Shown here one piece after another: positions 5,322-63,967 of a stretch of DNA of 64,000 nt (positions are counted from its first letter, which is position 1; every line of letters begins with the position of its first letter). Under the pieces are notes generated by a model. It worked only from the letters and a program-made list of their open reading frames with translations. It was not told where the DNA came from and ran no database searches. Made by a program: the position numbers and the translations under genes. Origin of the DNA: Thermoplasmatales archaeon (GTDB lineage: Archaea; Thermoplasmatota; E2; DHVEG-1); NCBI GenBank assembly GCA_030672305.1, contig DAOVGR010000014.1, positions 10,510-74,509 of the forward strand, given 5' to 3'.

Positions 5322-5356
5322 TAAAAAAAAAGATTAGAGGGGGATTTATTCCCTCT
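5322..5356 (-). terminator. Hairpin plus oligo-T terminator-like element after the S-layer-like gene
   Basis: Minus strand AGAGGG...CCCTCT stem followed by a long T run. Confidence 0.55.
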
Positions 5357-8300
5357 TATTTTCGTCTGCGTTTTAGTAGTATTAAAGCTACTCCAAGTGC
5401 AATTATCAGTGTTAATAGTTCGAATCCAGGTGCTTGTGCTTTAATTTCTATTGTTGCTGGATCTGCAGCAACGTAACCAGTCATCGTAGCTGTTATCGTG
5501 TATTTTCCGGGTTTTGCAGCTTTTTCTGTTACTTTGAATGTTGCTTGTCCATTTACTGTTGCTTCTGTAGTAACAACTGTACCATCAGCCTTTGTAATTG
5601 ATACTAGTATTCCATTGTTGTTACCATCATCAGCACCTGCTTTAATTGTAAATGACTCACCTACTGATGCTGAAGTCGGAACGCTCATATAGATCTTTGG
5701 TTTATTGATAACTTTGATTGTTACTGTATCAGTATCCTCTCTGTATCCTGCTTTTGTAGCTTTTATTGTATATGTACTATCACTTGTGACTGAAGGAGCA
5801 GTAAAGGTTACCTTTCCAGCAGAATCTGTTGTTGCAGAGCCGATTCCTGAAATCGAAACAGTTGCTCCCTCAACTGCTGTTGTAGTTCCCATTCTTATCA
5901 CTGTAACAGTAAAGTCGCTACCCTCATTTACTTGAGCAGGATCGACACTAACATCAAGCATCCAGTTTGTAACTATTAATTTGGTATCTACAATTCTTCC
6001 CTCTTCTCCAACATGTATATCAATATCTCCAGTTGAAGATGGGGTTATTGAGAATTCAATCGTACCATCCGCGCCAGTTGTACCATTTGTATCTGAAACA
6101 CTAATACCTCGACCGTCTAATCCTACGAATATATCTTCTAAAGGAGTTCCACGTCCCGTAACAGTACAGGTTAAAGTTGTAATTGTACCTATTGATGCAT
6201 ACATTGGATCCGGTGTAACAGTTGGTACTGATACACCAACTATACCAGTTGCTCTTGCCCATTCTCCACTACTACCATCTGTTAATTCTGGTTTAAACCA
6301 GAAAGTTATATTTTGTAATGCTTCTCCAGATGGTAAATGGCTTGCAGTAATATCATTAACTGTTACTTGTCCATTAACAAGTCCTTCATCTTCGTCAAGA
6401 TCTAATGTATCATTTGCTGAATCAGATGTATTAGTCCATGTCATGTTATATGTTCCATCTGTCCATGACATATTTTCAATTCTCAATGTTCCATTTAGAC
6501 GTTCACCAGTTATTTCACTTGTAATTGTAAACGTTGCACTTATATTTTCATCATATGCCCAAATAAATGGTGCCTTGTCACATTCTACATGTGCCTGCTT
6601 TATATCTATTGTTGCGTTATTATCGGTGGTATCAGATGTAAGGTTTTTAGCATATACTGTGAAAATACCTGGTGTTGTAATGTATTCATTTTTTAGTTTG
6701 TAAACGTAATCGTTGCCCATATTAGATGCAGCTATATCAGAAGCCGAAATTGAACCAATAGTTGTCGTCACATCCTCACCATCCTGATCGTATATCCACA
6801 CGTCTATATCTGTATAGTCATCCTCATCAGGAATCTCTGAAGCATTTCCTACATCATCTATCTTTGTTATGTTAATATAGAAATAGCTATATTTATACCC
6901 AGCAAGCAATGTACTTGTACCAGGGCTATCAACAGCTTCAAATGTAATCTTAAGATCATTAACTGGTTTCATTCTTATAATAGCCCATCCATAAACAGAC
7001 GTACCACCAACATATGCCTTCACGAAAACTGATAAGTTTCTCGGAGCTTTGATTTTGGAAAATCCAGCTTCGGTTTGATTGTCCCTTTGTTGAGTGGCGT
7101 TGAAACCTAATGAATACCCATCAAAACCATAGATATCCATAGATACTGTATGACCATCTAAGGGATTCTGCGCAGTAGCAACTTCGCCATCATCGATATA
7201 GTAGAGATATACTTCAGCACTACTGATAGTAGATCCATCAGCATACTGTACTTGTACTGTAAATGTTTGATCTGTACCAATCTCAAATTCGTTTGGTGTT
7301 ACAGTTACAATAGTTCCATTATTTATATATTTAGTTCCGCCAATTGCTAATGTTTCACTGATAGATCCATAGTCCTCCCATGTAGCAGAAATATCAATGC
7401 TTCCACCACCTTGACTCATGGTTGGAATAATTGGGATATTCCAGGTTTGTCCCCCGGTGAATGTAACTCCAGGTATTTTATCAAGTCTGCCAGTAAATAG
7501 TGCATTTCCAGTAATAGTTATGTTCTCACTTGCTTCTTTTTGAGCAGTTGCTCCGCCTGCACCATAAAATGTATGATCTTTTCCAATTATCTGAAATTGT
7601 ATATTTATAGGGGCTACAGTGGATCCTGGGATTGTCGGTAATTCTCCATCATTTAGAGTACCTCCACCATCATTAATCCATTTGAATTGTGCACCAGGTG
7701 CTGAACGAACATGCCAATCAACTGTAGCATTCCATTCTTCATTCCATTCTTTATTAGACTCTACTCTATCACCATTCAAATCGACGTATATATGAGCAAA
7801 CCATGATCCATTACCACCATAGATATGCCAGCTACTCTGATTTACACCCCAGCCGGCACTATATATAAGACAATATCCTGTATTTTGTGAAATAGTAAGG
7901 TTGTTTGTAATATCATTATCATTCTGGTTGTATATTTTTATAGTATAATTCGCAGCAGGTATTGGATTGTCACTTGTATCTTTTATTGAAATATTAACTT
8001 CGCCACTAAAATTCCAATACATGGTATCATTTCCAGCTGAAATTGATGTCATCGGTTCTCCAGGCCTAACTCTAAATACCAGTTCTGTTGCATTTATTTC
8101 AGGTGGATCCCAAGGACCACATATTGAATAGTTCCAGTTATCGCCAGCTGTTATTGGTGAAAATCCTGTACCATATCCTCCGCTGTATCCTTGGTCAATA
8201 CCCTCATCATTATAAAGATACGCCGCACTGCTATATTCATCTAGGTCAGCGTACGCACGTACTGTATAATTACCAGCCATAGTAATATTCAAATAAGTAT

Positions 8301-8958
8301 CAAAGGAGTAAATACCATCAGCCTCATACCTATGAAATATTGTGGAGCCATCTGGTGCTATAAGATCTATATTAACAGGAGTGTCAGGAGTTTCACCAGA
8401 TTGCGTTACAGTAATTGTTTTGGAGGTATTTGTACCAAAATCAAAATCACCCATCGTACTTATATCTATTCCTTCTGAGGTATTAACCCATAAAAAAGCA
8501 TCAAAGGTAAGTTGATCTTCTCCATCTATAGTACTCGGATCACTATCATCAAACACCCACATTCCAGCTCTATCCAAGGTGATCGGACCACTCAATTGAA
8601 CAATACCTGGTGCAGCGCCAACGGTTAATGTTACTGCAGTGCTGGTATCAGTTCTAAGAACTTGCTCAAACCATTCTAATTGCGTTGCATAACGATAACC
8701 CGTAGCACTACAATTATATGCTGGTTTATACAAGAAATATGTTGTAGAAGCCGTCATCCCAGTGGTGTTTATCCTAGGTCTTACTGTCGTATCTGGATCA
8801 TATTCTAAATCAGTAGTTGCATTACCAAAATCGTTGACACCTGGTGTAGTAGTTGGTGGATAAGCTAAAACAGTAGTTTCGTTATTAGTTATCAATACAA
8901 AAACAGATGCCACTAATGCTACTGCTATAAAAGCAGTCAATATTTTCTTACCTATCAT
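5356..8958 (-). CDS. Large surface glycoprotein, probably the S-layer protein, with Ig-like/CarboxypepD_reg-like domains and PGF-CTERM
   Basis: Signal peptide; Thr/Asp-rich with many NxS/T sequons; C-terminus APGFELLTLIIALGVALILLKRRRK; strong SD and long leader. Confidence 0.8.
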   Translation of the reverse strand: MIGKKILTAFIAVALVASVFVLITNNETTVLAYPPTTTPGVNDFGNATTDLEYDPDTTVRPRINTTGMTASTTYFLYKPAYNCSATGYRYATQLEWFEQVLRTDTSTAVTLTVGAAPGIVQLSGPITLDRAGMWVFDDSDPSTIDGEDQLTFDAFLWVNTSEGIDISTMGDFDFGTNTSKTITVTQSGETPDTPVNIDLIAPDGSTIFHRYEADGIYSFDTYLNITMAGNYTVRAYADLDEYSSAAYLYNDEGIDQGYSGGYGTGFSPITAGDNWNYSICGPWDPPEINATELVFRVRPGEPMTSISAGNDTMYWNFSGEVNISIKDTSDNPIPAANYTIKIYNQNDNDITNNLTISQNTGYCLIYSAGWGVNQSSWHIYGGNGSWFAHIYVDLNGDRVESNKEWNEEWNATVDWHVRSAPGAQFKWINDGGGTLNDGELPTIPGSTVAPINIQFQIIGKDHTFYGAGGATAQKEASENITITGNALFTGRLDKIPGVTFTGGQTWNIPIIPTMSQGGGSIDISATWEDYGSISETLAIGGTKYINNGTIVTVTPNEFEIGTDQTFTVQVQYADGSTISSAEVYLYYIDDGEVATAQNPLDGHTVSMDIYGFDGYSLGFNATQQRDNQTEAGFSKIKAPRNLSVFVKAYVGGTSVYGWAIIRMKPVNDLKITFEAVDSPGTSTLLAGYKYSYFYINITKIDDVGNASEIPDEDDYTDIDVWIYDQDGEDVTTTIGSISASDIAASNMGNDYVYKLKNEYITTPGIFTVYAKNLTSDTTDNNATIDIKQAHVECDKAPFIWAYDENISATFTITSEITGERLNGTLRIENMSWTDGTYNMTWTNTSDSANDTLDLDEDEGLVNGQVTVNDITASHLPSGEALQNITFWFKPELTDGSSGEWARATGIVGVSVPTVTPDPMYASIGTITTLTCTVTGRGTPLEDIFVGLDGRGISVSDTNGTTGADGTIEFSITPSSTGDIDIHVGEEGRIVDTKLIVTNWMLDVSVDPAQVNEGSDFTVTVIRMGTTTAVEGATVSISGIGSATTDSAGKVTFTAPSVTSDSTYTIKATKAGYREDTDTVTIKVINKPKIYMSVPTSASVGESFTIKAGADDGNNNGILVSITKADGTVVTTEATVNGQATFKVTEKAAKPGKYTITATMTGYVAADPATIEIKAQAPGFELLTLIIALGVALILLKRRRK

Positions 8959-11011: not shown

Positions 11012-13225
11012 TTAATTTTTATTTCTTCTCTTAAACACTAACGTAAACAAAATTGCTATAAATAATAGTATAATTTCATATCCCGGTAATCCCTCACTTT
11101 TCTTTACCTTTATCAATGCATAAGTAAAACTTGTATCACTATCCCCTTCTTGATCAGTAACAGTTAATGTGACAGTATAATTACCTGCTTTTTTGTAAAC
11201 ATGATAAGAAATAAATCCACTTTCATTATTTCCATCACCAAAATCCCATATAGGGTTAATAGTATCTCCATTATCAGGATCATAACTTCCAGAACCATCA
11301 AATATTATTGTTTTACCTTTTAGGCCTGAGTAATATCCATTTGAAATTGCAACTGGTGGTCTATTAGATTCGCTTCTTATTACAACAGTAGTGTTAACAG
11401 AATTGCTTGAACCATCATTATCTATAACTACCAAATTAACTGTGTATGTCCCCTCACTTTTAAAAGAATGATCAGAAGATATCTCATTTATTATACTTGT
11501 GTCAGGTGGAAAGGCCCATTTGTAAAAAATAATTTCTCCGTCTGGATCATAACTAGCAGATGCATCAAAAGTAATCGAATCATTTACTTGTGCATGTATT
11601 TCATCACCAACGACATATTCGTTAGGCACACTTATATCTATAATTGGTTTCTTATTATCAAGTGGAGTATTTATAGTAGTAAATATCCAAATAGGGGATC
11701 TAACTCTTGAATAACTATCTTCTACTTCAGCATACCATACACCTATATAATCATAACCAAGACCTTTATAAGTGTAAGTTGCAGTCTTTCCTTCAATTGT
11801 AGAAGAAAATGCCACAGATGCAGTCCCACCACTTTCAATGTTACGATTTACTCCAATTAAATTATAAGTGTCATTTAAAATGTAATAAAAATAAACATCT
11901 AATCTTTCTCTATATGATGGAGGATCAGGATCTGTTACTTCAACACTTAATATTGGATTTCTATCAACACCGCTTATTTCATTAGCAGGCGATGGATTTG
12001 ATAAAGAAGGTTGTTTATGATAAATTCCTTTAGGATAATTATCATAAACTCCACTTTTTTTATATTTATATATATCTGGGATATCAACAGAATCATATTC
12101 AACAGTATTGTTTACATTAGCTGGATCTGGACCATAAAAATCATCCCACCAGTTTCCTATATATCCATTGTCCCATTTATTTTTACCTTCCTCCTTTGCA
12201 TTCAGATCTATATTATCTTTAAATCTATTATTGTAAATAGTGTTGTCTTTACTTCCAGGTCTTGTGTATAATCCAGTATGTAAAGAATCATCAATGTAAT
12301 TGTCTCGAATAATGCTATTGGATCCTCCAATACTTATACCCATACCATTTTTTATGATGAAATTTCCACTTACAGTACAAAAATCACCACTTAAATCAAT
12401 TCCATAAATGTTGTTACTACTTATTGTATTATTAAAAATCTCATTTTCACTTCCAGAAACAATTAGAGTCCCAGAATATTCATTAAACGCAATTGTGTTA
12501 TTATCGATTAAGGTATTACTACATTCTGAGGCATATATTCCATAAGTACTGTTATCAATGTAATTATTAATAATATGGTTACCGATAGATGTTGCAATTC
12601 TAATACCAGGATTATTAGAACAGTTCCAAACACTATTTTGGTCTAATGTTATCAAATTCGAATTTCCAATATATACTCCTCTTGTACCATTGATAGTATT
12701 ATTTCTAATAACTGCTCCATGAGAGCCATCTATTAGAATTCCATAACCATTTTTACTATGGTTTATTAAACAATCAATAACTTTTACACCACTTGCTTCT
12801 GATGAGATATGAATTACAGCTTTTCTGTGCGATGTTGGTGTCGTATCCATTAATGATAATCTTTCAAGAGAAACAGAATCTGCTACAATATCAATTAGAT
12901 AAGCATTCTTCATTGAACTATTAATCAAAACATCTTCCAAAGATTCAGTTATAATTGTTATAGATTTATCAACAACTACATCACCTGTGTATTTTCCTGC
13001 AAGAACTTTGATAGTATCACCATCTTGAGCATTATTGACGGCATCCTGAATGTTCTTGTAAGGATTATATAAAGAACCATCAGCTTCATCTGGGTATCTT
13101 TGATCATCATCGACATAAATATCTTTACCAGAAGCTACAGAATGTTCACTATATATGTTTATCACAAAAATACTAATCAATAATGATAGAGTAATTATAC
13201 TAACAAGTGCTTTGGATTTATGCAT
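11012..13225 (-). CDS. Secreted NosD/CASH parallel beta-helix protein with two PKD domains and a PGF-CTERM variant (PGY)
   Basis: Signal peptide, IQDAVNNAQDGDTI, Asn-ladder repeats, FDASASYDPDG and WDFGDG, C-terminus LPGYEIILLFIAILFTLVFKRRNKN. Confidence 0.85.
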   Translation of the reverse strand: MHKSKALVSIITLSLLISIFVINIYSEHSVASGKDIYVDDDQRYPDEADGSLYNPYKNIQDAVNNAQDGDTIKVLAGKYTGDVVVDKSITIITESLEDVLINSSMKNAYLIDIVADSVSLERLSLMDTTPTSHRKAVIHISSEASGVKVIDCLINHSKNGYGILIDGSHGAVIRNNTINGTRGVYIGNSNLITLDQNSVWNCSNNPGIRIATSIGNHIINNYIDNSTYGIYASECSNTLIDNNTIAFNEYSGTLIVSGSENEIFNNTISSNNIYGIDLSGDFCTVSGNFIIKNGMGISIGGSNSIIRDNYIDDSLHTGLYTRPGSKDNTIYNNRFKDNIDLNAKEEGKNKWDNGYIGNWWDDFYGPDPANVNNTVEYDSVDIPDIYKYKKSGVYDNYPKGIYHKQPSLSNPSPANEISGVDRNPILSVEVTDPDPPSYRERLDVYFYYILNDTYNLIGVNRNIESGGTASVAFSSTIEGKTATYTYKGLGYDYIGVWYAEVEDSYSRVRSPIWIFTTINTPLDNKKPIIDISVPNEYVVGDEIHAQVNDSITFDASASYDPDGEIIFYKWAFPPDTSIINEISSDHSFKSEGTYTVNLVVIDNDGSSNSVNTTVVIRSESNRPPVAISNGYYSGLKGKTIIFDGSGSYDPDNGDTINPIWDFGDGNNESGFISYHVYKKAGNYTVTLTVTDQEGDSDTSFTYALIKVKKSEGLPGYEIILLFIAILFTLVFKRRNKN

Positions 13226-50782: not shown

Positions 50783-52710
50783 ATGAATTTAAACTTGTAA
50801 GTGATATGGAGCCAAAGGGTTCTCAACCTGAGGCAATAAAAAAACTTGTTGAAGGTCTAAAAAGAGGTGAAAAGTTACAGACACTTCTTGGTACAACGGG
50901 ATCTGGAAAAACTTTTTCAATGGCAAAAATAATTGAGAAAATACAGAGACCAACACTTGTTCTTGCACATAACAAGACTCTTGCAGCTCAACTTTTTTCT
51001 GAATTCAAAGAATTCTTTCCAGAAAACAGAGTCGAATATTTTGTTTCATATTATGATTATTACCAACCAGAGTCATATATTCCTTCTAAAGACCAATACA
51101 TTGAAAAAGATGCAGATGTAAATCCAAAAATAGAACAGATGAGACTTGCTGCTACTGCATCTGTTTTATCTCGTGAAGATGCAATTGTTGTTGCCTCTGT
51201 TTCTTGTATTTATACTGTTGGAAATCCAACTGATTTTATGTCACTTGGTTACGAGTTTAGAAAGGAATTTAATGTTAATAGAAGTGAAATTCTCGAGCGC
51301 CTTGTTGATATGCAATACGAACGAAATGACCTGTCTCTTGCACCTGGAAGATTTAGAGTAAAAGGCGATACAATTGATCTGATTCCTGGTTATTATGACA
51401 ATATAATTCGAATTGAGCTTTTTGGTAATGAAATCGAAAAGATATCTGAAATCGATAAGATAACTGGTAACATAATTGATGATTTAGATTATATTTTTGT
51501 TTATCCTGCAAAGCATTTTGTTATTAGAGAAGATAAAAGAAATCGTGCAATTGAAGCAATAAAACAAGAACTTGAAGAAACCCTTCCAAAGCTTGACATG
51601 ATTGAAGCTCATAGACTGAAACAGAGAACTCTTTATGATATAGAAATGCTTGAAGAAACAGGTTTTTGCAAAGGAATTGAAAATTATTCACGACATTTCG
51701 ACGGCAGAAAACCTGGTGAAAAACCATATTGTTTTCTTGATTATTTTCCTAAAGATTTCTTAATGTTTATTGATGAAAGCCATAGAACAATACCACAGAT
51801 TCATGGAATGAATCATGGTGATCATTCTCGAAAAAAGGCTCTTATAGACTATGGTTTTAGACTCCCTAGTGCTTTTGATAATCGGCCTCTTACCTATGAT
51901 GAATTTTTTGATTATATGAAAAATGTAATTTTTGTATCTGCAACACCTGGTGATTATGAGCTTGGTATTTCCAAGTCCATTGTCGAACAGATCATTCGAC
52001 CTACAGGTCTTGTTGATCCTCCTGTTGAAATAAGAAAAACAAAAGGACAAATCGATGATTTAATTTCTGAAATAAATTCCACAATTGCTCGTGGTGATAG
52101 AGTCCTTGTAACAACACTTACTAAACGACATGCTGAAGAACTTTCTGAATTTTTAGCTGAAAAAGAAATCAAAACTAGATATCTCCATGCAGAAATAGAC
52201 ACCCTTGAGAGATCTGAAATTATAAGACATCTTCGTCTAAGAAGATTTGACGTATTAGTTGGAATTAATCTACTCAGGGAAGGTCTTGATATTCCTGAAG
52301 TTGGTTTTATAGGAATTCTTGATGCAGATAAAGAAGGATTTTTACGTGACCATAGAAGTCTCATTCAAATAATTGGAAGAGCAGCAAGAAACGTTAATTC
52401 AAAAGTGGTGCTATATGCAGATAATATAACAGATTCAATTAAGAGAGCACTTGATGAAACAATTAGAAGGCGAAATATGCAAATTGTTTTTAATAAAAAA
52501 CATAATATAACTCCAACAACAATTATTAAACCGATAAAAGAAAAGATAATAGATGTAAAAGATGTAAAGCATATTCCTAAAAAAGATATTCCAAATATGA
52601 TAGTTGATCTCGAAATTGAGATGAGAAAGGCAGCAGATGAACTAAATTTTGAAAAAGCAATTTATCTAAGAGATAGAATTAATAGGTTGAAACAAACAAT
52701 TAGAATATAA
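50779..52710 (+). CDS. uvrB: Excinuclease ABC subunit B
   Basis: GTTGSGKT, YYDYYQPE, DESH and UVR domain. Confidence 0.98.
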   Translation: MNEFKLVSDMEPKGSQPEAIKKLVEGLKRGEKLQTLLGTTGSGKTFSMAKIIEKIQRPTLVLAHNKTLAAQLFSEFKEFFPENRVEYFVSYYDYYQPESYIPSKDQYIEKDADVNPKIEQMRLAATASVLSREDAIVVASVSCIYTVGNPTDFMSLGYEFRKEFNVNRSEILERLVDMQYERNDLSLAPGRFRVKGDTIDLIPGYYDNIIRIELFGNEIEKISEIDKITGNIIDDLDYIFVYPAKHFVIREDKRNRAIEAIKQELEETLPKLDMIEAHRLKQRTLYDIEMLEETGFCKGIENYSRHFDGRKPGEKPYCFLDYFPKDFLMFIDESHRTIPQIHGMNHGDHSRKKALIDYGFRLPSAFDNRPLTYDEFFDYMKNVIFVSATPGDYELGISKSIVEQIIRPTGLVDPPVEIRKTKGQIDDLISEINSTIARGDRVLVTTLTKRHAEELSEFLAEKEIKTRYLHAEIDTLERSEIIRHLRLRRFDVLVGINLLREGLDIPEVGFIGILDADKEGFLRDHRSLIQIIGRAARNVNSKVVLYADNITDSIKRALDETIRRRNMQIVFNKKHNITPTTIIKPIKEKIIDVKDVKHIPKKDIPNMIVDLEIEMRKAADELNFEKAIYLRDRINRLKQTIRI

Positions 52711-52791: not shown

Positions 52792-53649
52792 ATGAAGAAA
52801 AATTTAATAGTAGGTTTACTTATTTTTATGTTAGCAATTCCCAGTTTTATTACATCTGCTGAGCATACTGGCACTGTTAAATCAACCATAAATTTAGATG
52901 ATGATGTACCTATCTGGAATGTTGGTGACAGTTGGACCTTTGCAATTAGTGAATTTTCTGTTGATTATACATATGAGGATTTGAACATTGTTATGAACGG
53001 GAAAATTGATGATTTTAAATGGACAGTTTCTGATACAAGTGGTTCTTCATACATAGTTGATGTTTCTGGAAAAGTAACTGCATCTTTTGAAGCTGCTTTT
53101 CCATTAGGTGGAAATGTTTTAAATGTTAATGGTGATATTAAACCAACACTGAATAAAATAACAGGAACAATTGTTTTTACCAAATCTAACCTGGAGATTG
53201 AGGATTTTAATGCTGCGATAAAAGGTATTGCAAACGTACAAATTCATCCGATACCAATAAAGCTTCCTTTACCAATTAAAATATCTGCTAATGCTGATTT
53301 AAGTACAGTTTTTCCATTGTTTAGTTTTCCGCTGCATGTATTAAAATTCTGGTCTATGCCTGATATTGATATAGCAATGCATACAAGTTTTGGAGGGATA
53401 TTTGGCCTTATCAAGATTCCAATAACATTTAATACCCATTATTCCTGGACGCCCTTTGCATTTTCAATCCTAGTTAAAGAAAGTGTTACTGTTCCTGCAG
53501 GAACCTATGATGCGTGGAGAATTCAATCAATAATCGGTGATTACTTTGAATACTATTATGCACCAGTCGTTGGAAATCTAGTAAAAATCGATGTCAATAT
53601 GCCCCGCGGTGGGATACAAGGAGAATTAATAGATACAAACTATTCATAA
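52792..53649 (+). CDS. Secreted hypothetical protein (beta-rich)
   Basis: Signal peptide; PIWNVGDSW and ESVTVPAGTY...YYAPVVGNLVK. Confidence 0.75.
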   Translation: MKKNLIVGLLIFMLAIPSFITSAEHTGTVKSTINLDDDVPIWNVGDSWTFAISEFSVDYTYEDLNIVMNGKIDDFKWTVSDTSGSSYIVDVSGKVTASFEAAFPLGGNVLNVNGDIKPTLNKITGTIVFTKSNLEIEDFNAAIKGIANVQIHPIPIKLPLPIKISANADLSTVFPLFSFPLHVLKFWSMPDIDIAMHTSFGGIFGLIKIPITFNTHYSWTPFAFSILVKESVTVPAGTYDAWRIQSIIGDYFEYYYAPVVGNLVKIDVNMPRGGIQGELIDTNYS

Positions 53650-53689
53650 TTGTAAAAATTCAATATTTTTACAAGGGTAGAATATCCAA

Positions 53690-54916
53690 ATGCGAAATAA
53701 AATATTAAGTAAACTAGTATGTGTATTTTTGATAATGAGCATTATCTGTTCCTTTTCAGGAAATGTTATTTCTTTTAATAATATTGGTAAACAAACAAGT
53801 ATTGAAAATGAAAACCTGTACAACCAATTTATTTTAAAAGATCTTATGGGTAAAGGAAAAACATGCTATGGGTATCAAGCGTATCCCAATCCAGATCTTC
53901 TTCTTTCTTTTGATATGGATGATCCAGAAACCCTCAGTACAATTGGTACACCAATTACATCTGATAAAATAGCTGGTGGAACTTGGGTTGATGGTGTTTG
54001 GTGGTGTTGCGAATATTCAGCAGTAAGTAATTCGAAAATATGGACAATAGATCATTTAACTGGTGATATGATACTTATTGGAGAATCTGGTGAAGGATTT
54101 AATGGATTGGCTTATGATGATACAACGAGTATAATGTATGCATGTAGTTCAACTCATCTTTTTTCTATTGATATGGAAACTGGTGCTGCAACAATGATTG
54201 GTTCTTTTGGTATAAGCGGTTGTGTTATGGTTGGAGTCGCATGCGATGGATTTGGTAAAATGTACGGAGAAGATCTACATACTGATAGTCTTTATTCGAT
54301 AGATCCCTTAACTGGTATTGCTACGCTTATTGGACCATTTGGTCTTGATCTTAACTATGGTCAAGATATTGCCTTTGATAAAGAAAGTGGTATTTGTTAT
54401 TTATCTGCATTTTCTGTTCATGAAGGTAATGAAGGTGCATTATATACTTGTAATCTTACCTCTGGAGCGACAACAAAGATAGGCAACTTTGGATCAGTAC
54501 CTACCCAAATAACTGGATTTGTTATTCCATACATTCTAAATAATCCTCCATCTGCTCCAACAATAGATGGTCCTAATAGTGGAAAAATTGGAGAAACGTA
54601 TTACTATACTTTTATGAGTAGAGATCCAGATGGAGATGATGTTTGGTATCACTTATGTTGGGGTGATAAAGAAATCATATACATTTATGGACCATATCCT
54701 TCAGGCGAGGAATTAACGTTATCATATAATTGGTCTGAAATTGGAACATATGTTATCACCTGTTGGGCAAGAGATATATATGACAATACAAGTGAAATTT
54801 CAACATTTGAAGTCACTATGCCAAGGAACAAAATAATTACTAATTCGTGGTTACAATGGTATTTAGGACGATTACCAATTTTTGAAAGACTGCTAGCTTT
54901 AATCAAAGTTTTATAG
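53690..54916 (+). CDS. Secreted beta-propeller-like protein with PKD-like domain and PRN tail
   Basis: Signal peptide; repeated (L/I)(Y/F/W)xIDxxTGxxTxIG blades; PPSAPTIDGP...DPDGD module. Confidence 0.8.
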   Translation: MRNKILSKLVCVFLIMSIICSFSGNVISFNNIGKQTSIENENLYNQFILKDLMGKGKTCYGYQAYPNPDLLLSFDMDDPETLSTIGTPITSDKIAGGTWVDGVWWCCEYSAVSNSKIWTIDHLTGDMILIGESGEGFNGLAYDDTTSIMYACSSTHLFSIDMETGAATMIGSFGISGCVMVGVACDGFGKMYGEDLHTDSLYSIDPLTGIATLIGPFGLDLNYGQDIAFDKESGICYLSAFSVHEGNEGALYTCNLTSGATTKIGNFGSVPTQITGFVIPYILNNPPSAPTIDGPNSGKIGETYYYTFMSRDPDGDDVWYHLCWGDKEIIYIYGPYPSGEELTLSYNWSEIGTYVITCWARDIYDNTSEISTFEVTMPRNKIITNSWLQWYLGRLPIFERLLALIKVL

Positions 54917-55062
54917 ATTATTTAGTGTTGAATTTGATACAAATACAATAATTATTTTATTTATGACATTTGTTACAATTAACTTCTAATGAGAAAATAT
55001 TTAAATCTAAGAAATATATATATACCTCACCAAATCTTATTATTTGGGGAGGAAATAAAGCA

Positions 55063-55524
55063 ATGAAAAAAATCCTAACAGCAATAGTACTGTGTATTTT
55101 TATTCTAAGTGGATTCAGAGCTATTGCTATTCCTCACGAAAAACTAATTGAAAATAAACCTTTGAATATACAAGGCTTTCAACTTGAAATAATAATTGAG
55201 GGTGGATTTTTAGGATATACTGTTACAGTAATAAACACTGGAGCAGAACAAGTAAGAGGTAATTTAACAATTGAAATAACGACAGATACAATGGTTGTGC
55301 TATTCGGAGCAACCTTATCAGAAGAGTCTTTTTTAGATCTCAATCCAATAAATGGAATTGATACTTTCAAGCTACAACCTCTTATTGGATTTGGTTCAGC
55401 ATCAATTATTATATCAGGCGTTTTTCAAAATGAAATTGAAGAATACCCATTTGAAACAATATCAAATGGTTATGCGTTCCTCATCTATATCCTGTGTGAT
55501 AAAACATCAATATTTATACCATAG
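55063..55524 (+). CDS. Secreted hypothetical protein
   Basis: GGAGG SD plus MKKILTAIVLC signal peptide. Confidence 0.7.
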   Translation: MKKILTAIVLCIFILSGFRAIAIPHEKLIENKPLNIQGFQLEIIIEGGFLGYTVTVINTGAEQVRGNLTIEITTDTMVVLFGATLSEESFLDLNPINGIDTFKLQPLIGFGSASIIISGVFQNEIEEYPFETISNGYAFLIYILCDKTSIFIP

Positions 55525-55736
55525 TATCTATGGAAAACTAAGATACTGTTTTCTTTTTTTATCTGATAACTATTGAAATGAAATCAGAAAATTTGCTATG
55601 TAATTTCATTTTGACATTTTGACACGATGGGTTTAAATATAATCAGTGTCAAAGAGTAGCACGCCCATAGAGGGGTGATAGGGATATTTGATATCTGTAA
55701 TCTTCTCTTTTGGGAAGTGTTTAAGAAGGAAGAAAA

Positions 55737-55946
55737 ATGGAAAAAAAATGTATGGAAAGATTGGTAGGAAAACACTGTAAAATTGTAACAAAAGAACCTG
55801 GTGAAGATATAGCTCATGTTGTTTTTGGTATGGTTACGCTTATTGACTATAATGCAGGATTTGTGATAATTGAATCTAATCGAGGTACAGGATGCCTCAA
55901 TATGAAAACAATAGAAGCAATTAAACCTAGCAGTAAAAAGGTTTAA
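55737..55946 (+). CDS. Small protein with possible Sm/LSm-like fold
   Basis: LVGKHCKIV...GMVTLIDY..GFVII...IEAI pattern; own TATA box. Confidence 0.6.
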   Translation: MEKKCMERLVGKHCKIVTKEPGEDIAHVVFGMVTLIDYNAGFVIIESNRGTGCLNMKTIEAIKPSSKKV

Positions 55947-56059
55947 CCATTTCTTTTTTTTCTTTTTATATTATAAATAAATATCACATAATTTCTACTA
56001 TTGTAATACTTATAAATGATTAAATTATTGCATATAGTAGAAAGGGAGGAAAATAAGCT

Positions 56060-56644
56060 ATGAAAAAAATAATTGGAATTTTTATTTGTATGCTGTTGAT
56101 TACAATTATTTTACCAATAGCTGTAACTGCAGGTGATGAAACAAATCCAGAAATTGTTGATAATGTAGGGGACACTCCATTAAGCTTGTTAGATATTGAA
56201 TCAGCATGGTTTTTTGAAATGGAAGAGGAACCTGATTATTTGTTTATTGCCATGAAAATACTTTTTTTAAAGGAGAATTATAACGCTGTATTCTCGATTC
56301 GTTGGTCTTATGACGGAAATGATTATGCTGCCGGTGTAAATACCTTTAGTTTTAGAGATACTATCTTTCGCTGTGGCTTACCAAAACGTGCAACCTATTG
56401 GCAGTGGAATAGTATGCCTAAATGTGAGGGACAAATTGATATAGAAGATGAAATAATTACCTGGAAGATACCAAAAAGTACTATTGGTGATCCTCAACCA
56501 GGTGATGTTTTAACCAACACAAAAGCAAATGCAGTACCAGGATTTCCATTGAGTGTTCTATACTTTATATTACAATTTGATTATCGGGATTTCGCTCCTG
56601 ATAATTATGGGGAGTTTGGACTAAATTACATTGTAAAATACTAA
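56060..56644 (+). CDS. Secreted hypothetical protein
   Basis: MKKIIGIFICMLLI signal peptide; PEIVD..GD...DIESAWF and ITWKIPK..IGDP..GD. Confidence 0.75.
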   Translation: MKKIIGIFICMLLITIILPIAVTAGDETNPEIVDNVGDTPLSLLDIESAWFFEMEEEPDYLFIAMKILFLKENYNAVFSIRWSYDGNDYAAGVNTFSFRDTIFRCGLPKRATYWQWNSMPKCEGQIDIEDEIITWKIPKSTIGDPQPGDVLTNTKANAVPGFPLSVLYFILQFDYRDFAPDNYGEFGLNYIVKY

Positions 56645-56800
56645 AACTAATTTCTTTTTTTTATTTTTTATACCATAAAATTGAGCAATTATTGAAATTG
56701 AAATCTAGTAGCTAATTTATTTTAGAAAGAAAAGTTTGTGATAGCAGGTAGCATTTATATATCACTCCATCTATTATAATATATTAGGGAGACTTTTAAA

Positions 56801-58105
56801 ATGAAAATAAAGTCAATATTTCTTATAAGTATATGTTTTTTGTTAGTAATAAACTCAATATCTCTATCTGCTACTGAAAATAGGAATTTTGAAACAGAGA
56901 ACTCTAGTAAAGATTTTGATGAAGACATTGTCGATATGATCAAACAAATCGATGAAAATTTAGTTTATAGCTATCTAGAAAAGCTTGTTAGTTTTGGTCC
57001 GAGATATACTGGGTCTGAAAATTGTAAACGAGCTGGTGATTATATCTATAGTGTATTTGAAAATTTGAGTCTTGATGTTGAGTTTCATGAATGGAAATTT
57101 AGTAAATTTAAGAGTAGAAATGTTGTTGGTACTCTGAAAGGATATGATTCATCAAGTAATGCAATAATAATTATATCTGCTCATTATGACACAGTAAAAG
57201 ATTCTCTCGGTGCAAACGATGATGGTTCTGGTGTTGCGGCAGTTCTTGCAATTGCTGAAGTATTAAGTGATTATTCTTTACGTCATGATATTTGTTTTAT
57301 TGCTTTTTCTGGTGAAGAAGTGGGCACCTATGGAAGTTTTACCTATGCACGTGATGCATATAGAAGCGGAGATAATATTTATGCAGTTATAAATCCAGAT
57401 ATAATAGGATGGGCTGAAACCGAATATGGTGGAAAAATTATTAGATTTGCACATGTAGAAAGATCCTCGTGGATTGCAGAATTTGCGAGCAATATTAGTG
57501 AAAAATACATAGATGTTATCGATTTAACTGTTGAAGATATACCAAATTATAGGGGGGCTGATCATCAGGCATTTAATGATTATGGATATGATGCTGTATG
57601 GATTGCAGAACATGATCCATGTAGAAATTGTAACACACCTGATGATAATCTTACAAATATCAATTCTACATATCTTGCAAAATCAACAAAATTACTTCTT
57701 GCAATACTTGCAGAAATGGCCAATAAACCAATAGATATACAAGTTATTATAAGAACCCCTTATGAAGGAAGAGGTTACTTTTTTAATCGTTCAATTATTC
57801 CTTTAGATCTTGGAAGATTACATTTTTGGGGTTTTCGTGGAACAACATTACTCTGTGGGAGAGCAAATGCCAGTTGTGAGGTTATTACAAAAGAGGATGT
57901 TAAATTTGTTATCTTTTGTATTGATGATAACTTTCTTACATGGGATAGTACGCCTCCTTATGAATGGAAAATACAAGGAAAACATTTACCTCTTATAGGT
58001 AGACATAAGCTAAAGGTTTATGCTTATACATTTTCTGGAAAACGAGCAACTGATGAAATGGATATTATAGTCTTTACCCTTTCATATCAATATGGGCGAT
58101 GGTAA
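56801..58105 (+). CDS. Secreted M28 aminopeptidase with C-terminal Ig-like domain
   Basis: SAHYD, GANDDGSG, FSGEEVG and ADHQAF motifs. Confidence 0.9.
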   Translation: MKIKSIFLISICFLLVINSISLSATENRNFETENSSKDFDEDIVDMIKQIDENLVYSYLEKLVSFGPRYTGSENCKRAGDYIYSVFENLSLDVEFHEWKFSKFKSRNVVGTLKGYDSSSNAIIIISAHYDTVKDSLGANDDGSGVAAVLAIAEVLSDYSLRHDICFIAFSGEEVGTYGSFTYARDAYRSGDNIYAVINPDIIGWAETEYGGKIIRFAHVERSSWIAEFASNISEKYIDVIDLTVEDIPNYRGADHQAFNDYGYDAVWIAEHDPCRNCNTPDDNLTNINSTYLAKSTKLLLAILAEMANKPIDIQVIIRTPYEGRGYFFNRSIIPLDLGRLHFWGFRGTTLLCGRANASCEVITKEDVKFVIFCIDDNFLTWDSTPPYEWKIQGKHLPLIGRHKLKVYAYTFSGKRATDEMDIIVFTLSYQYGRW

Positions 58106-58256
58106 AAAAAGTTATTTTAAAGAGTTATTACTCTTTTTTTCATTTTAGTTGAAATGGATTCAAAATAAACAGAAAAATTATTATAACATTTTACTAGTAA
58201 TATTTAAGTGTCAATATTTCATATATTCTAAATAATATTTGGGAGGTAGTTAAGAA

Positions 58257-60716
58257 ATGATATATTATAATTTCAGAAAATTATTGGTAATTGGAATTAT
58301 TATATTTTTTGTAGGGGCAAGTGTTTTACCAAGCATAACTGGAAAAGTTCAGAACCTAAATAATGGTGAAGATATTAATGATGTATTGCCTAAACCGTTG
58401 CCACGATGGCGAGAAGGTGGAACTCCTTATAATCCTGATCAATCACTTCATCCATATTCAATAAAACTGAGAGATTCGCCAACATCTGGATTTATAGAAT
58501 CACCAGCTGAATATGATCCATCGCGAGGTGTACTCTTTTGTTATATAACTGGTAATTGGCATGAAGTTGTTGTTGATCTTGTAGTAGCATTAACCCAGGA
58601 TAGTGATTTTGATGATATTGCATATGTTTTAGTCATAAGCCAGTCTCAGATGAATTCAGCAATAAGTCAATTTACAGCAAATGGTGCAGATATGGATAAG
58701 GTTGAGTTCATAATTGAACCTGCTAATGCTATTTGGATGCGGGATTATGGCCCACATTTTATTTTTCAGGCCGATACACTATCAATCGTTGATAGTCACT
58801 ATTATCCACAACGGTCTTTAGATAACTTTATTCCAACTCTTATTGGTGATGACCATTTTATTATGCCAACCTATGATATCGGATTGTATTATTCGGGTGG
58901 CAATTTCTTACCTGGTCCAGATCGTTCAGCTTTTATGAGTTCTCTTATTAACCTGGATAATCCTTCTTCTCAAGGATTTAGTGAAGAGCTCATCGCTGAA
59001 TTATTTCAAACCTATCAAGGAATTGATGATGTGCATGTTATGCCACAGTTGCCAGGATCTGTGGATGGAACAGGACATATTGATATGTGGATGTATATTA
59101 TCAACGAAGATTCAGTTATTATTTCTGAATTTAAACCTGGTTCAGATCCTACAGCAATTCAAATTACTGAAAATGCAGTTCCATATATGCAAAATTTAGG
59201 TTTTGCAGTATATCGTACTCCAGCATGGAATGCTCCTCACCCTGATGAGGGATATAACACACATTGGACTTACACAAATAGTTTTATTGCCAATGACCGT
59301 ATTTTTATTCCAACGTATGGAGAAACCTATCCCGATTATGCAGATGAAGATGCTCAAGCATTAGCTGCATTTGAAGCAGCTGCTCCTCATTTAGAAATCG
59401 TTGAGATTAACTGTTATCCAATAATATGGGCTTCAGGTGCGATTCATTGTATTGTTATGCAGGTTCCACGTCATACAGATTCTGAACCATCTGTTCATGT
59501 TATTTGGCCCGATGGAGGTGAATTTTTAGCAAGTGGAACAACGCAAACTATTGAATGGTGTGCAACAGATACTGATAATGATGAAATCCCTCAAATCGAC
59601 CTTTACTATTCAATCGATGGTGGTAATAATTATGATTTTATTGATTCAACTACTGATACAGGTTTTTATGATTGGATTGTACCTAACGTTGAAACCGATC
59701 AGGCAAAAATCAAGGTTGTCGCAATATCTGCAGATTCTGACGAAGGTGTAGGAATAAGTGCTGATGTATTCAATATATCTTCATCAGGTCAATCTGTTTA
59801 TGATTTTGTTACTGGTGAAAGTGAAGATAAATATTGCTTTGGCCATCAAACCACTAGCTGGAGTAATATAGACAACGAACGCAAACCTGTTACAACCGAG
59901 ATTGAATCAACAGATTATTCAAAGCTTGCCTATTCAGATGCAACTGGTAATGATTATGATCCAAATCGTTACATCTCACCAAGCCCATCAGGTTCTTCTA
60001 AATCAACACATATTTTTGAATTCGAAATCGAGGAAGAATCTGATAATATAGATGATATCGAGATTTTTTGGGAAGGTTATTCTGATGAATGTACCCAGAT
60101 TGAACTTTATATTTGGGATTATGTTGAAGAACAATGGGGTGATGGTGAGGGACTTTTTGGTCAAAACCGCTATATGGGCAACTGGGCTGGAAATAGGGAT
60201 GGCTATCTGAAGAATAATATCCGTTCAGATTTTGATCATTATATTAATCCCAGTGGTCAAATGACACTTTTATCATATGCTGAAAGGGGCTCTTACAAAT
60301 CATTTCATGATTATGTATCTGTTATTATTAGTAAGATAAATGATGCTCCTGATGAACCAAGTATAGATGGTCCAACAAGTGGAATTATGGGTATAGAATA
60401 TAACTATACATTTAATTCAATAGACCCTGATGGTCATGATATTTATTATTATATTGACTGGGATGATGGAAATATTGAGGAATGGATAGGTCCATATAAC
60501 TCAGAAACTGAAGTGACAATTAGCCATGTATGGGAAGATAGAGGAACATATGAAATAAAAGCAAAGGTCAAGGACACTCTTGACGCTGAAAGCGACTGGA
60601 CAGAGTTATGGATTTCAATTCCAAGAAATAAAGCAATAAATAACCAATTGTTCCAAAGACTTTCTGAGCGGTTTTTATATATATTTCCAATTCTCTGGAA
60701 GTTTTTAGTACATTAA
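58257..60716 (+). CDS. Secreted agmatine / peptidylarginine deiminase family protein with PKD-like domain and PRN tail
   Basis: WMRDYGP, GGN, TGHID, YTN and GAIHC (catalytic Cys); signal peptide. Confidence 0.9.
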   Translation: MIYYNFRKLLVIGIIIFFVGASVLPSITGKVQNLNNGEDINDVLPKPLPRWREGGTPYNPDQSLHPYSIKLRDSPTSGFIESPAEYDPSRGVLFCYITGNWHEVVVDLVVALTQDSDFDDIAYVLVISQSQMNSAISQFTANGADMDKVEFIIEPANAIWMRDYGPHFIFQADTLSIVDSHYYPQRSLDNFIPTLIGDDHFIMPTYDIGLYYSGGNFLPGPDRSAFMSSLINLDNPSSQGFSEELIAELFQTYQGIDDVHVMPQLPGSVDGTGHIDMWMYIINEDSVIISEFKPGSDPTAIQITENAVPYMQNLGFAVYRTPAWNAPHPDEGYNTHWTYTNSFIANDRIFIPTYGETYPDYADEDAQALAAFEAAAPHLEIVEINCYPIIWASGAIHCIVMQVPRHTDSEPSVHVIWPDGGEFLASGTTQTIEWCATDTDNDEIPQIDLYYSIDGGNNYDFIDSTTDTGFYDWIVPNVETDQAKIKVVAISADSDEGVGISADVFNISSSGQSVYDFVTGESEDKYCFGHQTTSWSNIDNERKPVTTEIESTDYSKLAYSDATGNDYDPNRYISPSPSGSSKSTHIFEFEIEEESDNIDDIEIFWEGYSDECTQIELYIWDYVEEQWGDGEGLFGQNRYMGNWAGNRDGYLKNNIRSDFDHYINPSGQMTLLSYAERGSYKSFHDYVSVIISKINDAPDEPSIDGPTSGIMGIEYNYTFNSIDPDGHDIYYYIDWDDGNIEEWIGPYNSETEVTISHVWEDRGTYEIKAKVKDTLDAESDWTELWISIPRNKAINNQLFQRLSERFLYIFPILWKFLVH

Positions 60717-60850
60717 TTAATAAAATCTATCTCATTTTTCTTTCTTTATTTACTCATTCTCTTAATAATCTAAAGATAAAAACTTAAATCATATAAAGCT
60801 ATTACAATTCTATTAAAATTATAAAATTGTAATAAGGGAGAAAAAAGAAT

Positions 60851-63800
60851 ATGAAAAAGCATGTTTTAGCAGTATCAATATGCCTAATAATGATAAGCAG
60901 TGTACTTGCAGGTGCAACAATTGTTGTAAACAAAGATACAGGTTTGTTTGAAATCAAAGATGGAGCGATAAGTGTAAATATCCCTGTAGAATCATACCAG
61001 ATAATAAATTCATTAGAAGGAGATGAAATCTCAATTGAAAACTTTGGTCGTAACTTAATACCAGGAAAACCAAATTTACCATCAAAAATATTTTCTATTG
61101 CAATTCCACCTGGAGCTGAAATTATTAATGTTGGTTATGAAATTTTAGATAGCTATGTTCTACCAGGAAAATATGATATCTTTCCAGTATCTCTTCCGAG
61201 GGTTGTTGGTGAAGAGGATCCTGAAGTCTATCAACAAGAATTGAAAAAGTATAATGAGAATTATAATGAGGTTTACGAAAATAACAATCCATATCCCTCT
61301 TCAGTTGCGGAATTTGTTCGAAAAGCTGGATATAGGAAGTACAATTTAGTAGATGTTAGGATTAATCCAGTTACTTATTATCCTTCAACCGGTGAGTTAG
61401 TTTATAATTCAGAAATCACAGTTGATATAAGCTATACATTTCCAGATGGTTTTTCTAAAGAAGAAATAATGGTTGATAACTCGGAAGTTACAGAGAAATG
61501 TGCAGAAAAAATCATATATAACTATCAAAATGCAAAAGAATGGTATCCTAAAGATAAGGGAAGTAGAGATACCTATGATTATGTAATTATTACAATTGAT
61601 TCCTTAACTTCTTCCATTCAGGATTTGGTTGATTGGGAAGAAAGTAAAGGAAGGAGTGTTAATGTTGTAACAACCTCTTGGATTGATTCTAATTATGATG
61701 GCTATGACCTTGCAGAAAAGATCCGTAACTTTTTAAGAGATAAATATCCTTCAAGTGAATGGGGAATTTTGGATGTCTGTATAATTGGTCATTATGATGA
61801 TGTTCCTATGCGACGTTGTGCCCAGGATTTAGGATATGGTATGCCTGAGACTGATTATTATTACGCTGAGCTTTCTCTTCCAGATAATGAATCTTGGGAT
61901 GCTGATGGAGACCATCTATATGGAGAAAATTCTGATCCAATTGACTTCACTGCTGAAATAAACGTTGGAAGAATCCCCTGGAGTGAATCTTCTACTGTTT
62001 CACATATTTGTAATAAATCTGTTGAATATGAACAGAATAATGATACAGAATTTAAGAAAAATATTCTTCTTCTTGGTGCCTTTTTCTGGTCTGATACCGA
62101 CAATGCTGTTCTAATGGAGGCAAAGGTTGACCAGGATTGGATGAGTGATTGGAATATGACACGTATGTATGAAGAGGGTTATTCAACATATGAAAGCGAT
62201 TACAATCTTAACTATGATAATGTAAAATCAGTTTGGTCAGAAGGGAAATATGCATTTGTAAACTGGGCAGGGCATGGTTCACCTACATCATGTCATATAA
62301 TGTACTCAAAGGGTAGTGCATTTGTAACAACTGATACTTGCTCATATCTAAATGATTCTTACCCTGCAATCATTTTTGCTGATGCCTGCAGTAACTCTGA
62401 CACTGACCACCTGAATATCGGCCAGGCAATGCTAGAACAAGGTGGCGTTGGATTCCTTGGCTCTACAAAGGTTGCTTATGGATTGCATGGCTGGAATGAT
62501 CCATATGATGGATCCAGTCAGTCTATGGATTATTTCTTTACAACCTGTGTTACATCTGGCGAGTACTCCCAAGGTCAAGCACATCAATGGGCATTATATG
62601 AGATGTATACAAATGGGCTTTGGTATTACCAAAATTATGAGATTTTTGAATGGGGCGCCCTTTGGGGAAATCCTGATCTTGCAATGCTTCCACCAACTCT
62701 TAGAATCAATCTTCCAGATGGCACACCTGAATTTATTGAACCGGGTGTTCATACCACAATATCTGTAGAAATTGAAGAAAACACAGATACATATGTTCCT
62801 GGTTCAGGTAAGCTTCATTATAGATATGATGGAGGAACGTATATCGAGTCATCATTGATTCATATAAGTGGAAATGAGTATGAGGCAACATTACCTCCAG
62901 CATCCTGTGGTGATATTCCAGAATTCTATTTCAGTGCCGAAGGAGAAATTGCAGGAGTTGTAAATAGTCCATATGATGCTCCAGATACAGTCTACACAGC
63001 ACTTGTAGGAGAGCTCATTTCTGTATTTACGGATGACTTTGAGAATGATACTGGCTGGACTGTAGAAAATCAATGTGTCGATGGACAATGGGGACGAGGC
63101 ATTCCAATAGGCGGCGGAGCTCGCGGAGATCCTCCTACAGATTATGATGGTTCTGGAAATTGTTATTTAACAGATAATGAAGAGGGGGATTCAGATGTTG
63201 ACGATGGATATACATGGCTGAATTCACCAACAATTAATCTTAGTTATGACAATGATGTGTATATTTCCTATGCTCTTTGGTACACAAACAACTTTGGAAA
63301 TGACCCAAATAATGATCTTTTTAAGGTATATGTTTCAAATGACGATGGTGCAAATTGGGCTTTAGCAGAAACAATTGGACCCTCTTCAAATTCAGGTTGG
63401 AAAGAACATCGCTTCTTGGTTAATGATTTCGTTACTCCAACAAGTACAGTAAAAGTTCGCTTTGAGGCATCAGACCTAAATGAAGGTTCTGTTGTTGAAG
63501 CAGGAATAGACGCCTTCAGTGCCTCTATCCATGAATGTGAAGACATAAACATCCCAATTGTCTGCTGCAATGGAGAGCTAAGATGGACTGGCGTATCACC
63601 TGGAGCAACTGTTACAGGCAGCTTTACAGTTGAAAACTGTGGTGGTCCTACAACAGAACTATCTTGGGAGATAGAAACTCCTACAGATTGGGGCTCGTGG
63701 GATTTTTCACCAGAAAGTGGCACTGGATTGACTCCGGAAGATGGAGCAGTCACTATCAATGTTGAAGTTGTTACTCCAAATGAAATGAACAAAGAATTCA

Positions 63801-63967
63801 CCGAAAAAATAAAAATATTTAATACAGATGATCCTAGCGACTATTGTGAAATAGATGTATATCTTACAACACCAAGAAACAGACCTTTGTTCAACACATT
63901 TTTCATGAGATTACTAGAACAATTCCATAATGCATTTCCAATTTTTCAACAACTATTAGGACTATAA
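60851..63967 (+). CDS. Secreted gingipain-like C25 cysteine peptidase with propeptide, accessory domains and PRN tail
   Basis: PGKPNLP propeptide; TDYYY, VGRIP, NWAGHG (His), ADACS (Cys) and GNPDL motifs. Confidence 0.92.

Follow-up and report, generated by a model that had tools for sequence, protein, structure and literature searches.

Once exported and freed of its signal peptide, PBP5 of Escherichia coli stays on the outer face of the inner membrane through an amphipathic helix formed by its last 18 residues (PMC2909392). In-plane anchors of this type, found on PBP5, PBP6 and DacD, combine an N-terminal signal peptide and export with a short, positively charged amphipathic C-terminal segment that is not a transmembrane (TM) helix, and hold their protein without a covalent link. 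PGF-CTERM, the signal of the archaeosortase A system, is a short conserved C-terminal element with a tripartite signature-TM-basic structure that is carried by many unrelated Sec substrates (PMC6098224). In type IX secretion (T9SS, with its PorU/C25 sortase), the C-terminal domain (CTD) is a beta-sandwich of 70–100 amino acids (aa) within a cassette that includes an immunoglobulin (Ig)-like module and is swapped among secreted hydrolases, C25 peptidases among them, and in the dockerin-cohesin system of cellulosomes a small C-terminal module is carried by many hydrolases. Here we analyse a C-terminal tail of about 31 aa that is shared by three predicted secreted proteins in a 64,000-nucleotide stretch of a Thermoplasmatales archaeon genome (GCA_030672305.1, contig DAOVGR010000014.1, named C23 below, positions 10,510 to 74,509 of the forward strand; 'the window'). 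The tail belongs to a family of more than 100 strictly C-terminal elements in this genome, and we consider it, with about even confidence, to be a lineage-specific localisation tag that would retain proteins non-covalently at the cell surface.

The window contains exactly three tail-bearing open reading frames (ORFs), all on the forward strand, and two further ones lie just past its end on the same contig. ORF1 (53690..54916, 408 aa) comprises a signal-peptide-like N-terminus, a DUF4394/DUF6923-type beta-propeller, a PKD-like pre-tail module (54557..54820) and the tail (54821..54916). ORF2 (58257..60716, 819 aa) has a signal-peptide-like N-terminus, a PAD_porph deiminase domain, an Ig-like middle region, a PKD-like pre-tail module (60357..60620; Pfam PKD at residues 716-783) and the tail (60621..60716). 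In ORF3 (60851..63967, 1038 aa), a signal-peptide-like N-terminus is followed by a C25 propeptide, a Peptidase_C25 domain, a choice-of-anchor-J-like region (below the cut-off), a CARDB/NPCBM_assoc-like Ig module (63551..63859) and the tail (63872..63967). All three N-termini consist of a short basic stretch and then a hydrophobic leader. A preliminary description of this DNA had reported the tails and their common features P-R-N-[KR], Asn at position 8 and P-I-[FL]-x-x-[LF]-L; translation reproduced each tail letter for letter, with 31 aa counted from the Pro and the stop codon directly after, and all three features occur in all three tails. Its view that the proteins are non-homologous holds for the passengers, which are unrelated, and fails for the region before the tail: the PKD-like modules of ORF1 and ORF2 are homologous (42% identity over 119 aa), and ORF3 carries an analogous Ig-like module, distinct from the PKD-like one, with weak matches to NPCBM_assoc and Cep192_D4 and with homologues that carry CARDB (PF07705).

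The window is part of a 2.81-Mb assembly of 86 contigs (31.9% G+C, 88% complete). Its stop-to-stop segments of 50 aa or longer number 13,309 and contain the motif PRN[KR] 67 times, 58 of these within the last 45 residues. A tail-only hidden Markov model (HMM), built from 47 seeds and applied at E<=1e-3, matched 110 ORFs, and in all 110 the match ended no more than 15 aa from the stop codon; reversed ORFs and shuffled ORFs gave no match. A search with a 30-tail alignment returned 134 matches, and an iterated profile that included the last PKD strand returned 147 ORFs, with a C-terminal match in 143. In two of the four internal cases a PKD module and hinge lead into another domain or a degenerate end (o4243, o5505), and the other two lack the hinge and run on into a different C-terminal region. 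Tail genes make up 104 of 2,521 crude gene calls (∼4% of genes) and are often arrayed, with up to 7 within 16 kb; other ends among these calls are 12–14 of PGF-CTERM type, 13 in an unnamed beta-sandwich domain and ∼34 other C-terminal TM anchors. The three window tails are free of Pfam and NCBIfam matches, even at E<=10, NCBIfam at E<=1 gave nothing on 55 modules except Ig-like matches, and the sole match of the tail profile among PDB chains at E<=10 is at chance level (Pelota, E 0.29). The proposal that a profile would recover many more tails, all C-terminal and outside any named sorting family, was thus borne out, both in this genome and among the 150 best database representatives described below.

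An alignment of 310 tails defined the anatomy of the element. From the initial Pro, tails measure 25–40 residues (median 31), and the conserved positions are those of the hinge (P in 98%, [KR] in 97%, any residue, [KR] in 97%) followed by [ED] (91%), F (94%) and P (95%). Ala comes after the hinge in 43–50% of tails, then a variable stretch of 4–8 residues, and hydrophobic residues (h) are spaced as hhxxhh, [ED], [RQ], F-P, hhxxhhxhh (hhxxhhxxh-P-hhxxhhxhh). The tails have a net charge of +2.85 and an aromatic content of 21%, compared with 10.8% in the proteome, and a terminal K/R, never more than one residue, is present in roughly one tail in four (column 37). Of 100 anchored tails, just one contained a 19-aa Kyte-Doolittle window scoring 1.6 or more, so the tails hold no TM segment, as had been noted for the three in the window. 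The amphipathic moment (muH) of the two tail halves was 0.61 and 0.60, against 0.40 and 0.41 in composition-matched shuffles, whereas the tail modelled as a single continuous helix did no better than shuffles (0.287 versus 0.260). Amphipathic halves without an amphipathic whole fit two helices that are out of register, with a kink at F-P. Mutual information across the 310 tails was confined to local pairs, with no coupling between helix 1 and helix 2, a pattern that agrees equally well with a hairpin and with its absence.

Two subtypes of the tail were distinguished. Type A has the consensus ...WFLERFPMLERLL..., and type B (...ERFPNAFPILRxLLGL) has four extra residues compared with type A. On the PKD modules of the source genome, 68 tails are of type A and 22 of type B. 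In the window, the ORF1 tail is of type A (hinge PRNK, predicted amphipathic helix, L-P kink, second helix), the ORF2 tail is of type B (hinge PRNK, then ...ERFLYIFPILWKFLVH, with the 4-residue insert before F-P) and so is the ORF3 tail (hinge PRNR). Nearly all of 40 tails from six genomes of five other genera are of type B, the few remaining ones being without the insert, and one genus has a consensus of its own, ENHPH.FPLLRQLLGL. The prevalence of type B outside the source genus indicates that type B is the ancestral form and type A a derived form of this genus.

The sequence similarity of the tails reflects selection on the protein. At the nucleotide level, 52 type-A tails share identities of 0.77, 0.93 and 0.57 for the first, second and third codon positions; right after the tail stop codon the value drops to 0.30, compared with 0.28 for random sequence. 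As similarity ends at the stop codon and the codon positions differ in this way, the shared element is a protein feature, and a DNA repeat or mobile-element artefact was rejected. The tail was kept at constant length in all eight ORF3 (C25) orthologues, where its identity (65%) lies between those of the signal peptide (62%) and the Ig module (71%), with the catalytic domain at 88%; changes in these tails fall mostly at polar positions, and hydrophobic ones are kept. In the tail-coding DNA of 52–105 tail ORFs of the source genome, including window positions 54880-54916, the core is also written in rare codons. Phe is TTC in 64–83% of cases (19% genome-wide), Leu is CTG in about 50% (5% genome-wide), and CGA and CGT, genome-wide 11% and 14% of Arg codons next to 55% for AGA, account for most Arg codons at the tail-core position. 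Codon usage at conserved residues of the neighbouring PKD module matches that of the genome. Tail cores of other genera give a mixed picture, read without the background usage of those genomes for comparison. Common descent, gene conversion or selection on translation are possible origins of this codon pattern.

The tail is found on proteins that mostly look exported, as the preliminary description had assumed. With the same permissive hydrophobicity heuristic, signal-peptide-like N-termini were called in 92 of 110 tail ORFs and in 350 of 978 background long ORFs, and a hydrophobicity heuristic also called them in 59 of 75 full-length database representatives with a tail. An additional TM-like segment is present in just 1 of the 90 tail proteins having a signal-peptide call. 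Pfam searches of 67 tail proteins placed the passengers in ∼15 families, which include S8, C10, C25 and S15 peptidases as well as Kelch, PQQ/BamB-type and FG-GAP propellers, DUF4394, NosD/beta-helix, Laminin_G_3, LanC-like, nitroreductase, rhodanese and transglutaminase-core proteins; none of these families covers the tail.

Of the 18 tail ORFs without a signal-peptide call, six are truncated by contig ends. Several of the others have a clear hydrophobic leader that begins with none of ATG, GTG or TTG; in their place, a GGAGGTGA-like Shine-Dalgarno sequence is followed at a distance of a few bases by ATC or ATA (on C53, C1, C19, C75 and C82; o8837, o71, o2823, o11641, o12710), which suggests, as judged from these leaders, that some tail genes use non-canonical start codons. 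The signal peptides of many unrelated secreted proteins in the source genus are also alike in sequence (...K.LVIGVILLFLGVAIQPSVA...), and a profile of the leader of one family (model positions 3-45 of its alignment) matches dozens of other ORFs genome-wide. The N-terminal leader, like the tail, may therefore have spread as a cassette.

PKD-like modules precede 90 of the 110 tails, the one in ORF1 being homologous to these, and CARDB-like modules of the type seen in ORF3 precede 10. In at least four full-length ORFs the tail comes straight after a beta-helix or propeller, with no Ig module. As the tail follows a CARDB-like module or no Ig module at all in these proteins, it is separable from the Ig module, and the PKD-like module in turn occurs without a tail, both internally and in relatives. 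Mean column identity is 45% for the PKD-like module and 48% for the tail. In one ORF (o4243) the hinge leads into another domain instead of a tail, and it may therefore belong to the PKD module.

The tail is interchangeable with other C-terminal modules. An S8 subtilase with PKD module and tail shares 74–75% identity over ∼540 aa with two paralogues whose C-terminus is a beta-sandwich CTD, and the homology stops at the last PKD module. Three PGF-type proteins have 3–9 tail-bearing paralogues each. The preliminary description had contrasted the tails with PGF-CTERM ends at 5356 and 11012 of the window, and these are genuine ends of minus-strand ORFs. The first ORF (5356..8958) encodes a 1200-aa surface protein that ends in PGF, a hydrophobic stretch and KRRRK; the second (11012..13225), with a PGY-type anchor, encodes a 737-aa NosD/beta-helix and PKD protein, one of the three PGF-type proteins just mentioned, and 3 of the 8 paralogues found for it bear a tail (best identity 28%). 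Homologous passengers thus carry the tail, PGF-CTERM or the beta-sandwich CTD, which places the tail in the slot of a localisation module. The beta-sandwich CTD is a second unnamed module, of ∼105 aa (∼110 aa in relatives), and lies at the extreme C-terminus of 13 proteins, for example those encoded at C64:20123-22153, at C54:12187-14223 and on C3 (the 806-aa ORF o351). It has no Pfam or NCBIfam match, and TIGR04183, the T9SS CTD model, gave no match in the genome at E<=0.01. In relatives without the tail the domain is common (loci L037, L042-L044, L046 and L048).

Phylum-wide, the tail is limited to one family of uncultured sediment Thermoplasmatota. In a sample of 41 relatives it was present in 17 of 24 genomes of the same family, 1 of 8 of the sister family and 0 of 8 across six remaining families; in a phylum-wide sample of 301 genomes it was present in 22 of 35 of the same family and in 0 of 265 from 47 other families. 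Genomes of the source genus contain 75–105 tail-profile matches each. Against 1.84 billion cluster representatives, the 37-position profile matched 1,069 proteins at E<=0.001, of which 43 reached E<=1e-10, and among the best 150 of the 1,069 the tail lies 0–11 residues from the protein end in all cases. A related-locus search with one tail protein returned two loci, both from metagenome-assembled genomes (MAGs) named 'Thermoplasmatales archaeon', and named homologues come from 'Thermoplasmatales archaeon SG8-52-2/-3' and similar MAGs. We take the SG8-52 bins to be Marine Benthic Group D / Thermoprofundales. The locus-tag prefix of SG8-52-3 is also that of the best match of Thermoprofundales MAG proteins in PMC6461988.

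Relatives without a profile match hold the same PKD-like module, and in 20 of their loci we read the sequence that follows it. Diverged tails that the profile had missed come after the module in G017 (L032, L036, L040, L045), G052 (L031, L038) and G008 (L033). In G024, the three tails read (L030, L035, L041) are degenerate Q/S-rich remnants after the PKD module and an MPKN hinge, one of which still ends ...MIRLLG.... A beta-sandwich domain follows the module in G004, G052 and G008, and in G004 the PKD-module ORFs read showed no tail and had the beta-CTD instead. Genomes negative for the profile are therefore not all truly tail-less.

The preliminary description had also proposed a route independent of archaeosortase A, and the phyletic pattern supports it. 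The source genome contains a single archaeosortase-like ORF alongside true PGF-CTERM ends, of which two lie in the window, and its only TIGR04126 match belongs to another ORF, on C19. PF09721 matched 10 of the 24 family genomes without correlation to tails, a comparison made across the 41 relatives with genomes 64–95% complete and low archaeosortase scores. Tails without a PF09721 match number 103 in G002, 53 in G011, 22 in G007, 16 in G020, 19 in G005 and 10 in G022; G024, G021 and G009 have a PF09721 match, yet no tail-profile match. Archaeosortase was therefore rejected as the tail partner. The tail shares with PGF-CTERM its shortness, its conservation on many unrelated Sec substrates and its slot, but it lacks the TIGR04126 motif, the TM helix with a terminal basic cluster, any NCBIfam match and co-occurrence with archaeosortase.

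Other candidate partners were likewise rejected. A PorU-like role of C25 finds no support in its distribution, because C25 is present in 38 of the 41 relatives regardless of tails, unlike in T9SS logic; the T9SS CTD also differs from the tail in size and fold, the tail having 25–40 aa and helical periodicity. We know of no outer membrane in the source lineage. Peptidase_C25 is a much enlarged family throughout the class: individual genomes contain up to 38 matches, and the source genome ∼30. Relatives share the 1200-aa PGF-CTERM surface protein whether or not they match the tail profile. A helical two-TM family of ∼10 paralogues (230–265 aa; signal peptide, all-helical domain of ∼130 aa, conserved Cys, two C-terminal TM helices; no Pfam family) mostly adjoins tail genes on the same strand, six members lying within two genes of one (loci of the family are C29:20526-21266, C84:3264-4052, C21:7478-8170, C7:44498-45280, C6:51972-52712, C35:17322-18116, C27:21085-21849 and C14:10254-10967). 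Even with a widened profile, however, it was found in three genera and one partial match, and it has no match in the tail-rich genomes G011 and G007. Of the sorting/anchoring system that the preliminary description had suggested, the tail family is real, whereas processing or sorting machinery found no support in the window or among the candidates tested.

A large, strictly C-terminal, TM-less element on unrelated Sec substrates that can be swapped with known anchors is most economically explained by a role in localisation. In the reading that we favour, tail proteins would be exported by Sec and have their N-terminal signal peptide removed, and their last 25–40 residues would then hold them outside the cell without a covalent link. 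The holding element would consist of the basic hinge P-[RK]-x-[RK] and two short, amphipathic, aromatic-rich helices with the near-invariant F-P kink between them, and the helices would either lie in the membrane interface, as does the C-terminal helix of PBP5, or dock onto a conserved surface component. Peptidases and binding proteins would thereby be kept beside the producing cell. The basic hinge, the aromatic amphipathic helices and the kink are compatible with an interfacial membrane anchor of the PBP5 kind; as in PBP5, tail proteins have a signal-peptide-like start and a predicted terminal helix that is amphipathic, net-positive and below TM-grade hydrophobicity, and the likeness is one of sequence features. 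The tail differs from the PBP5 anchor in its two helices split by F-P, its conserved acidic residue and dibasic hinge and its archaeal origin, and in being a sequence family on more than 100 unrelated proteins per genome rather than the property of one enzyme family.

Several observations weigh against this reading. The amphipathic moment lies just ∼1 standard deviation above composition-matched shuffles, and neither the window nor the candidates tested yielded a partner or enzyme for the tail. An acidic residue at 91% and F-P at 94–95% over at least six genera are more than a generic lipid-seeking helix needs. The genus-specific consensus points towards a specific partner or a concerted spread of the cassette, the Q/S-rich remnants of G024 would fit the loss of a partner, and the conserved dibasic hinge might just as well be cut by a protease; the conserved Glu, the F-P, the genus-specific consensus, the decay in one genus and the hinge together fit a partner or processing better than they fit a membrane anchor.

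An alternative that we regard as improbable is that the tail is a cleaved sorting signal or pro-peptide, cut by some enzyme at or near the hinge, after which the protein would be set free or would be joined through its new C-terminus to a surface molecule, in a sortase or T9SS logic without a TM segment. The two hinge basics at 97% each, the Ala that is next in 43–50% of tails, the [ED]-[RQ]-F-P core kept across genera and the genus-specific consensus forms all agree with this, as do the wholesale decay of tails in G024, the slot shared with PGF-CTERM, itself a cleaved signal, and the abundance of Arg-specific clan CD peptidases in the genome (the ∼30 C25 matches). However, C25 is also present in relatives without tail-profile matches, archaeosortase is not co-distributed, no other candidate enzyme was found, the genome has no T9SS CTD, and a tail without a TM segment would not be presented to an intramembrane enzyme. 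The hinge of o4243, which stands before a different domain, is possibly part of the PKD module.

Slightly less probable still is a docking or oligomerisation peptide, in which the helix-kink-helix would bind a scaffold or other tails and assemble hydrolases into cellulosome-like surface complexes. Conservation of specific residues, polar ones included, the genus-specific forms, the side-by-side presence of 68 type A and 22 type B tails on PKD modules in one genome and the gene arrays speak for it, and the likeness to dockerins makes surface assembly conceivable. Unlike a dockerin, the tail has no Pfam dockerin match and no Ca-binding repeats (3 + 67 tail proteins), nor any other Pfam match; no cohesin-like scaffold was found among the candidates, which included the PGF surface protein and the two-TM family beside tail genes, and the tails of C25 orthologues vary at polar positions while keeping hydrophobic ones.

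A bolder proposal, to which we give about the same low probability as to docking, is that the tail and the Ig-like module before it act as the signal by which an undiscovered surface-sorting pathway of archaea recognises its substrates. The receptor or enzyme dedicated to it would read the [ED]-[RQ]-F-P core and process at the dibasic hinge, more than 100 substrates per cell would be attached or handed over without a TM signal or archaeosortase, and the unnamed beta-sandwich CTD would be a parallel route.

It is very unlikely that the tail lacks a localisation role and structurally caps the Ig-like module before it, or is a shared leftover of cassette duplication. In favour of this reading, 90 of 110 tails follow the same PKD-like module, module and tail diverge at similar rates, and the atypical codons that the tails share hint at common descent or gene conversion. 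Against it, a non-homologous module, or directly a beta-helix or propeller, can precede the tail, the PKD module exists without it, and the tail is always terminal, kept in 8 of 8 orthologues and under protein-level selection up to its stop codon.

Full-text searches of the literature found no paper describing the tail, and term look-up found none in the available text of PMC6461988, PMC9123169 and PMC6098224; the word 'amphipathic' is absent from the available part of a 2018 review of archaeal surface biogenesis (PMC6098224). New in the present analysis are the family-limited distribution across the phylum without a phyletic link to archaeosortase or C25, the exchange of modules on near-identical passengers and the diverged or decayed tails of seemingly negative genera; type B as the ancestral form and the codon anomaly of the tail core are likewise new. 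Archaea of the source lineage belong to the most common archaea of marine sediments, where their extracellular peptidases are believed to break down buried protein (PMC6461988; PMC9123169). Tail-bearing genes include C25, C10, S8 and S15 peptidases, and if the tail acts as a localisation tag it would decide where these enzymes are located. Enzymes held on the cell would be private rather than public goods, which would change how enzyme activity measured in sediments is read, and the tail would represent a widely used archaeal mode of anchoring without a TM helix, lipid modification or archaeosortase. The tail profile would let annotators flag more than 1,000 protein clusters.

Among the neighbouring genes, four more ORFs with leader-like N-termini and no tail lie on the forward strand at 52792-58105, before and between the tail genes; they encode proteins of 285 aa (weak DUF3108-like matches), 184 aa and 194 aa and an M28 peptidase. 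The presence of tail-less secreted ORFs in the window indicates that the tail is not needed for export, and the region as a whole resembles a secretome island. Just upstream (49232-52710) lie UvrC and UvrB, named from their translations alone.

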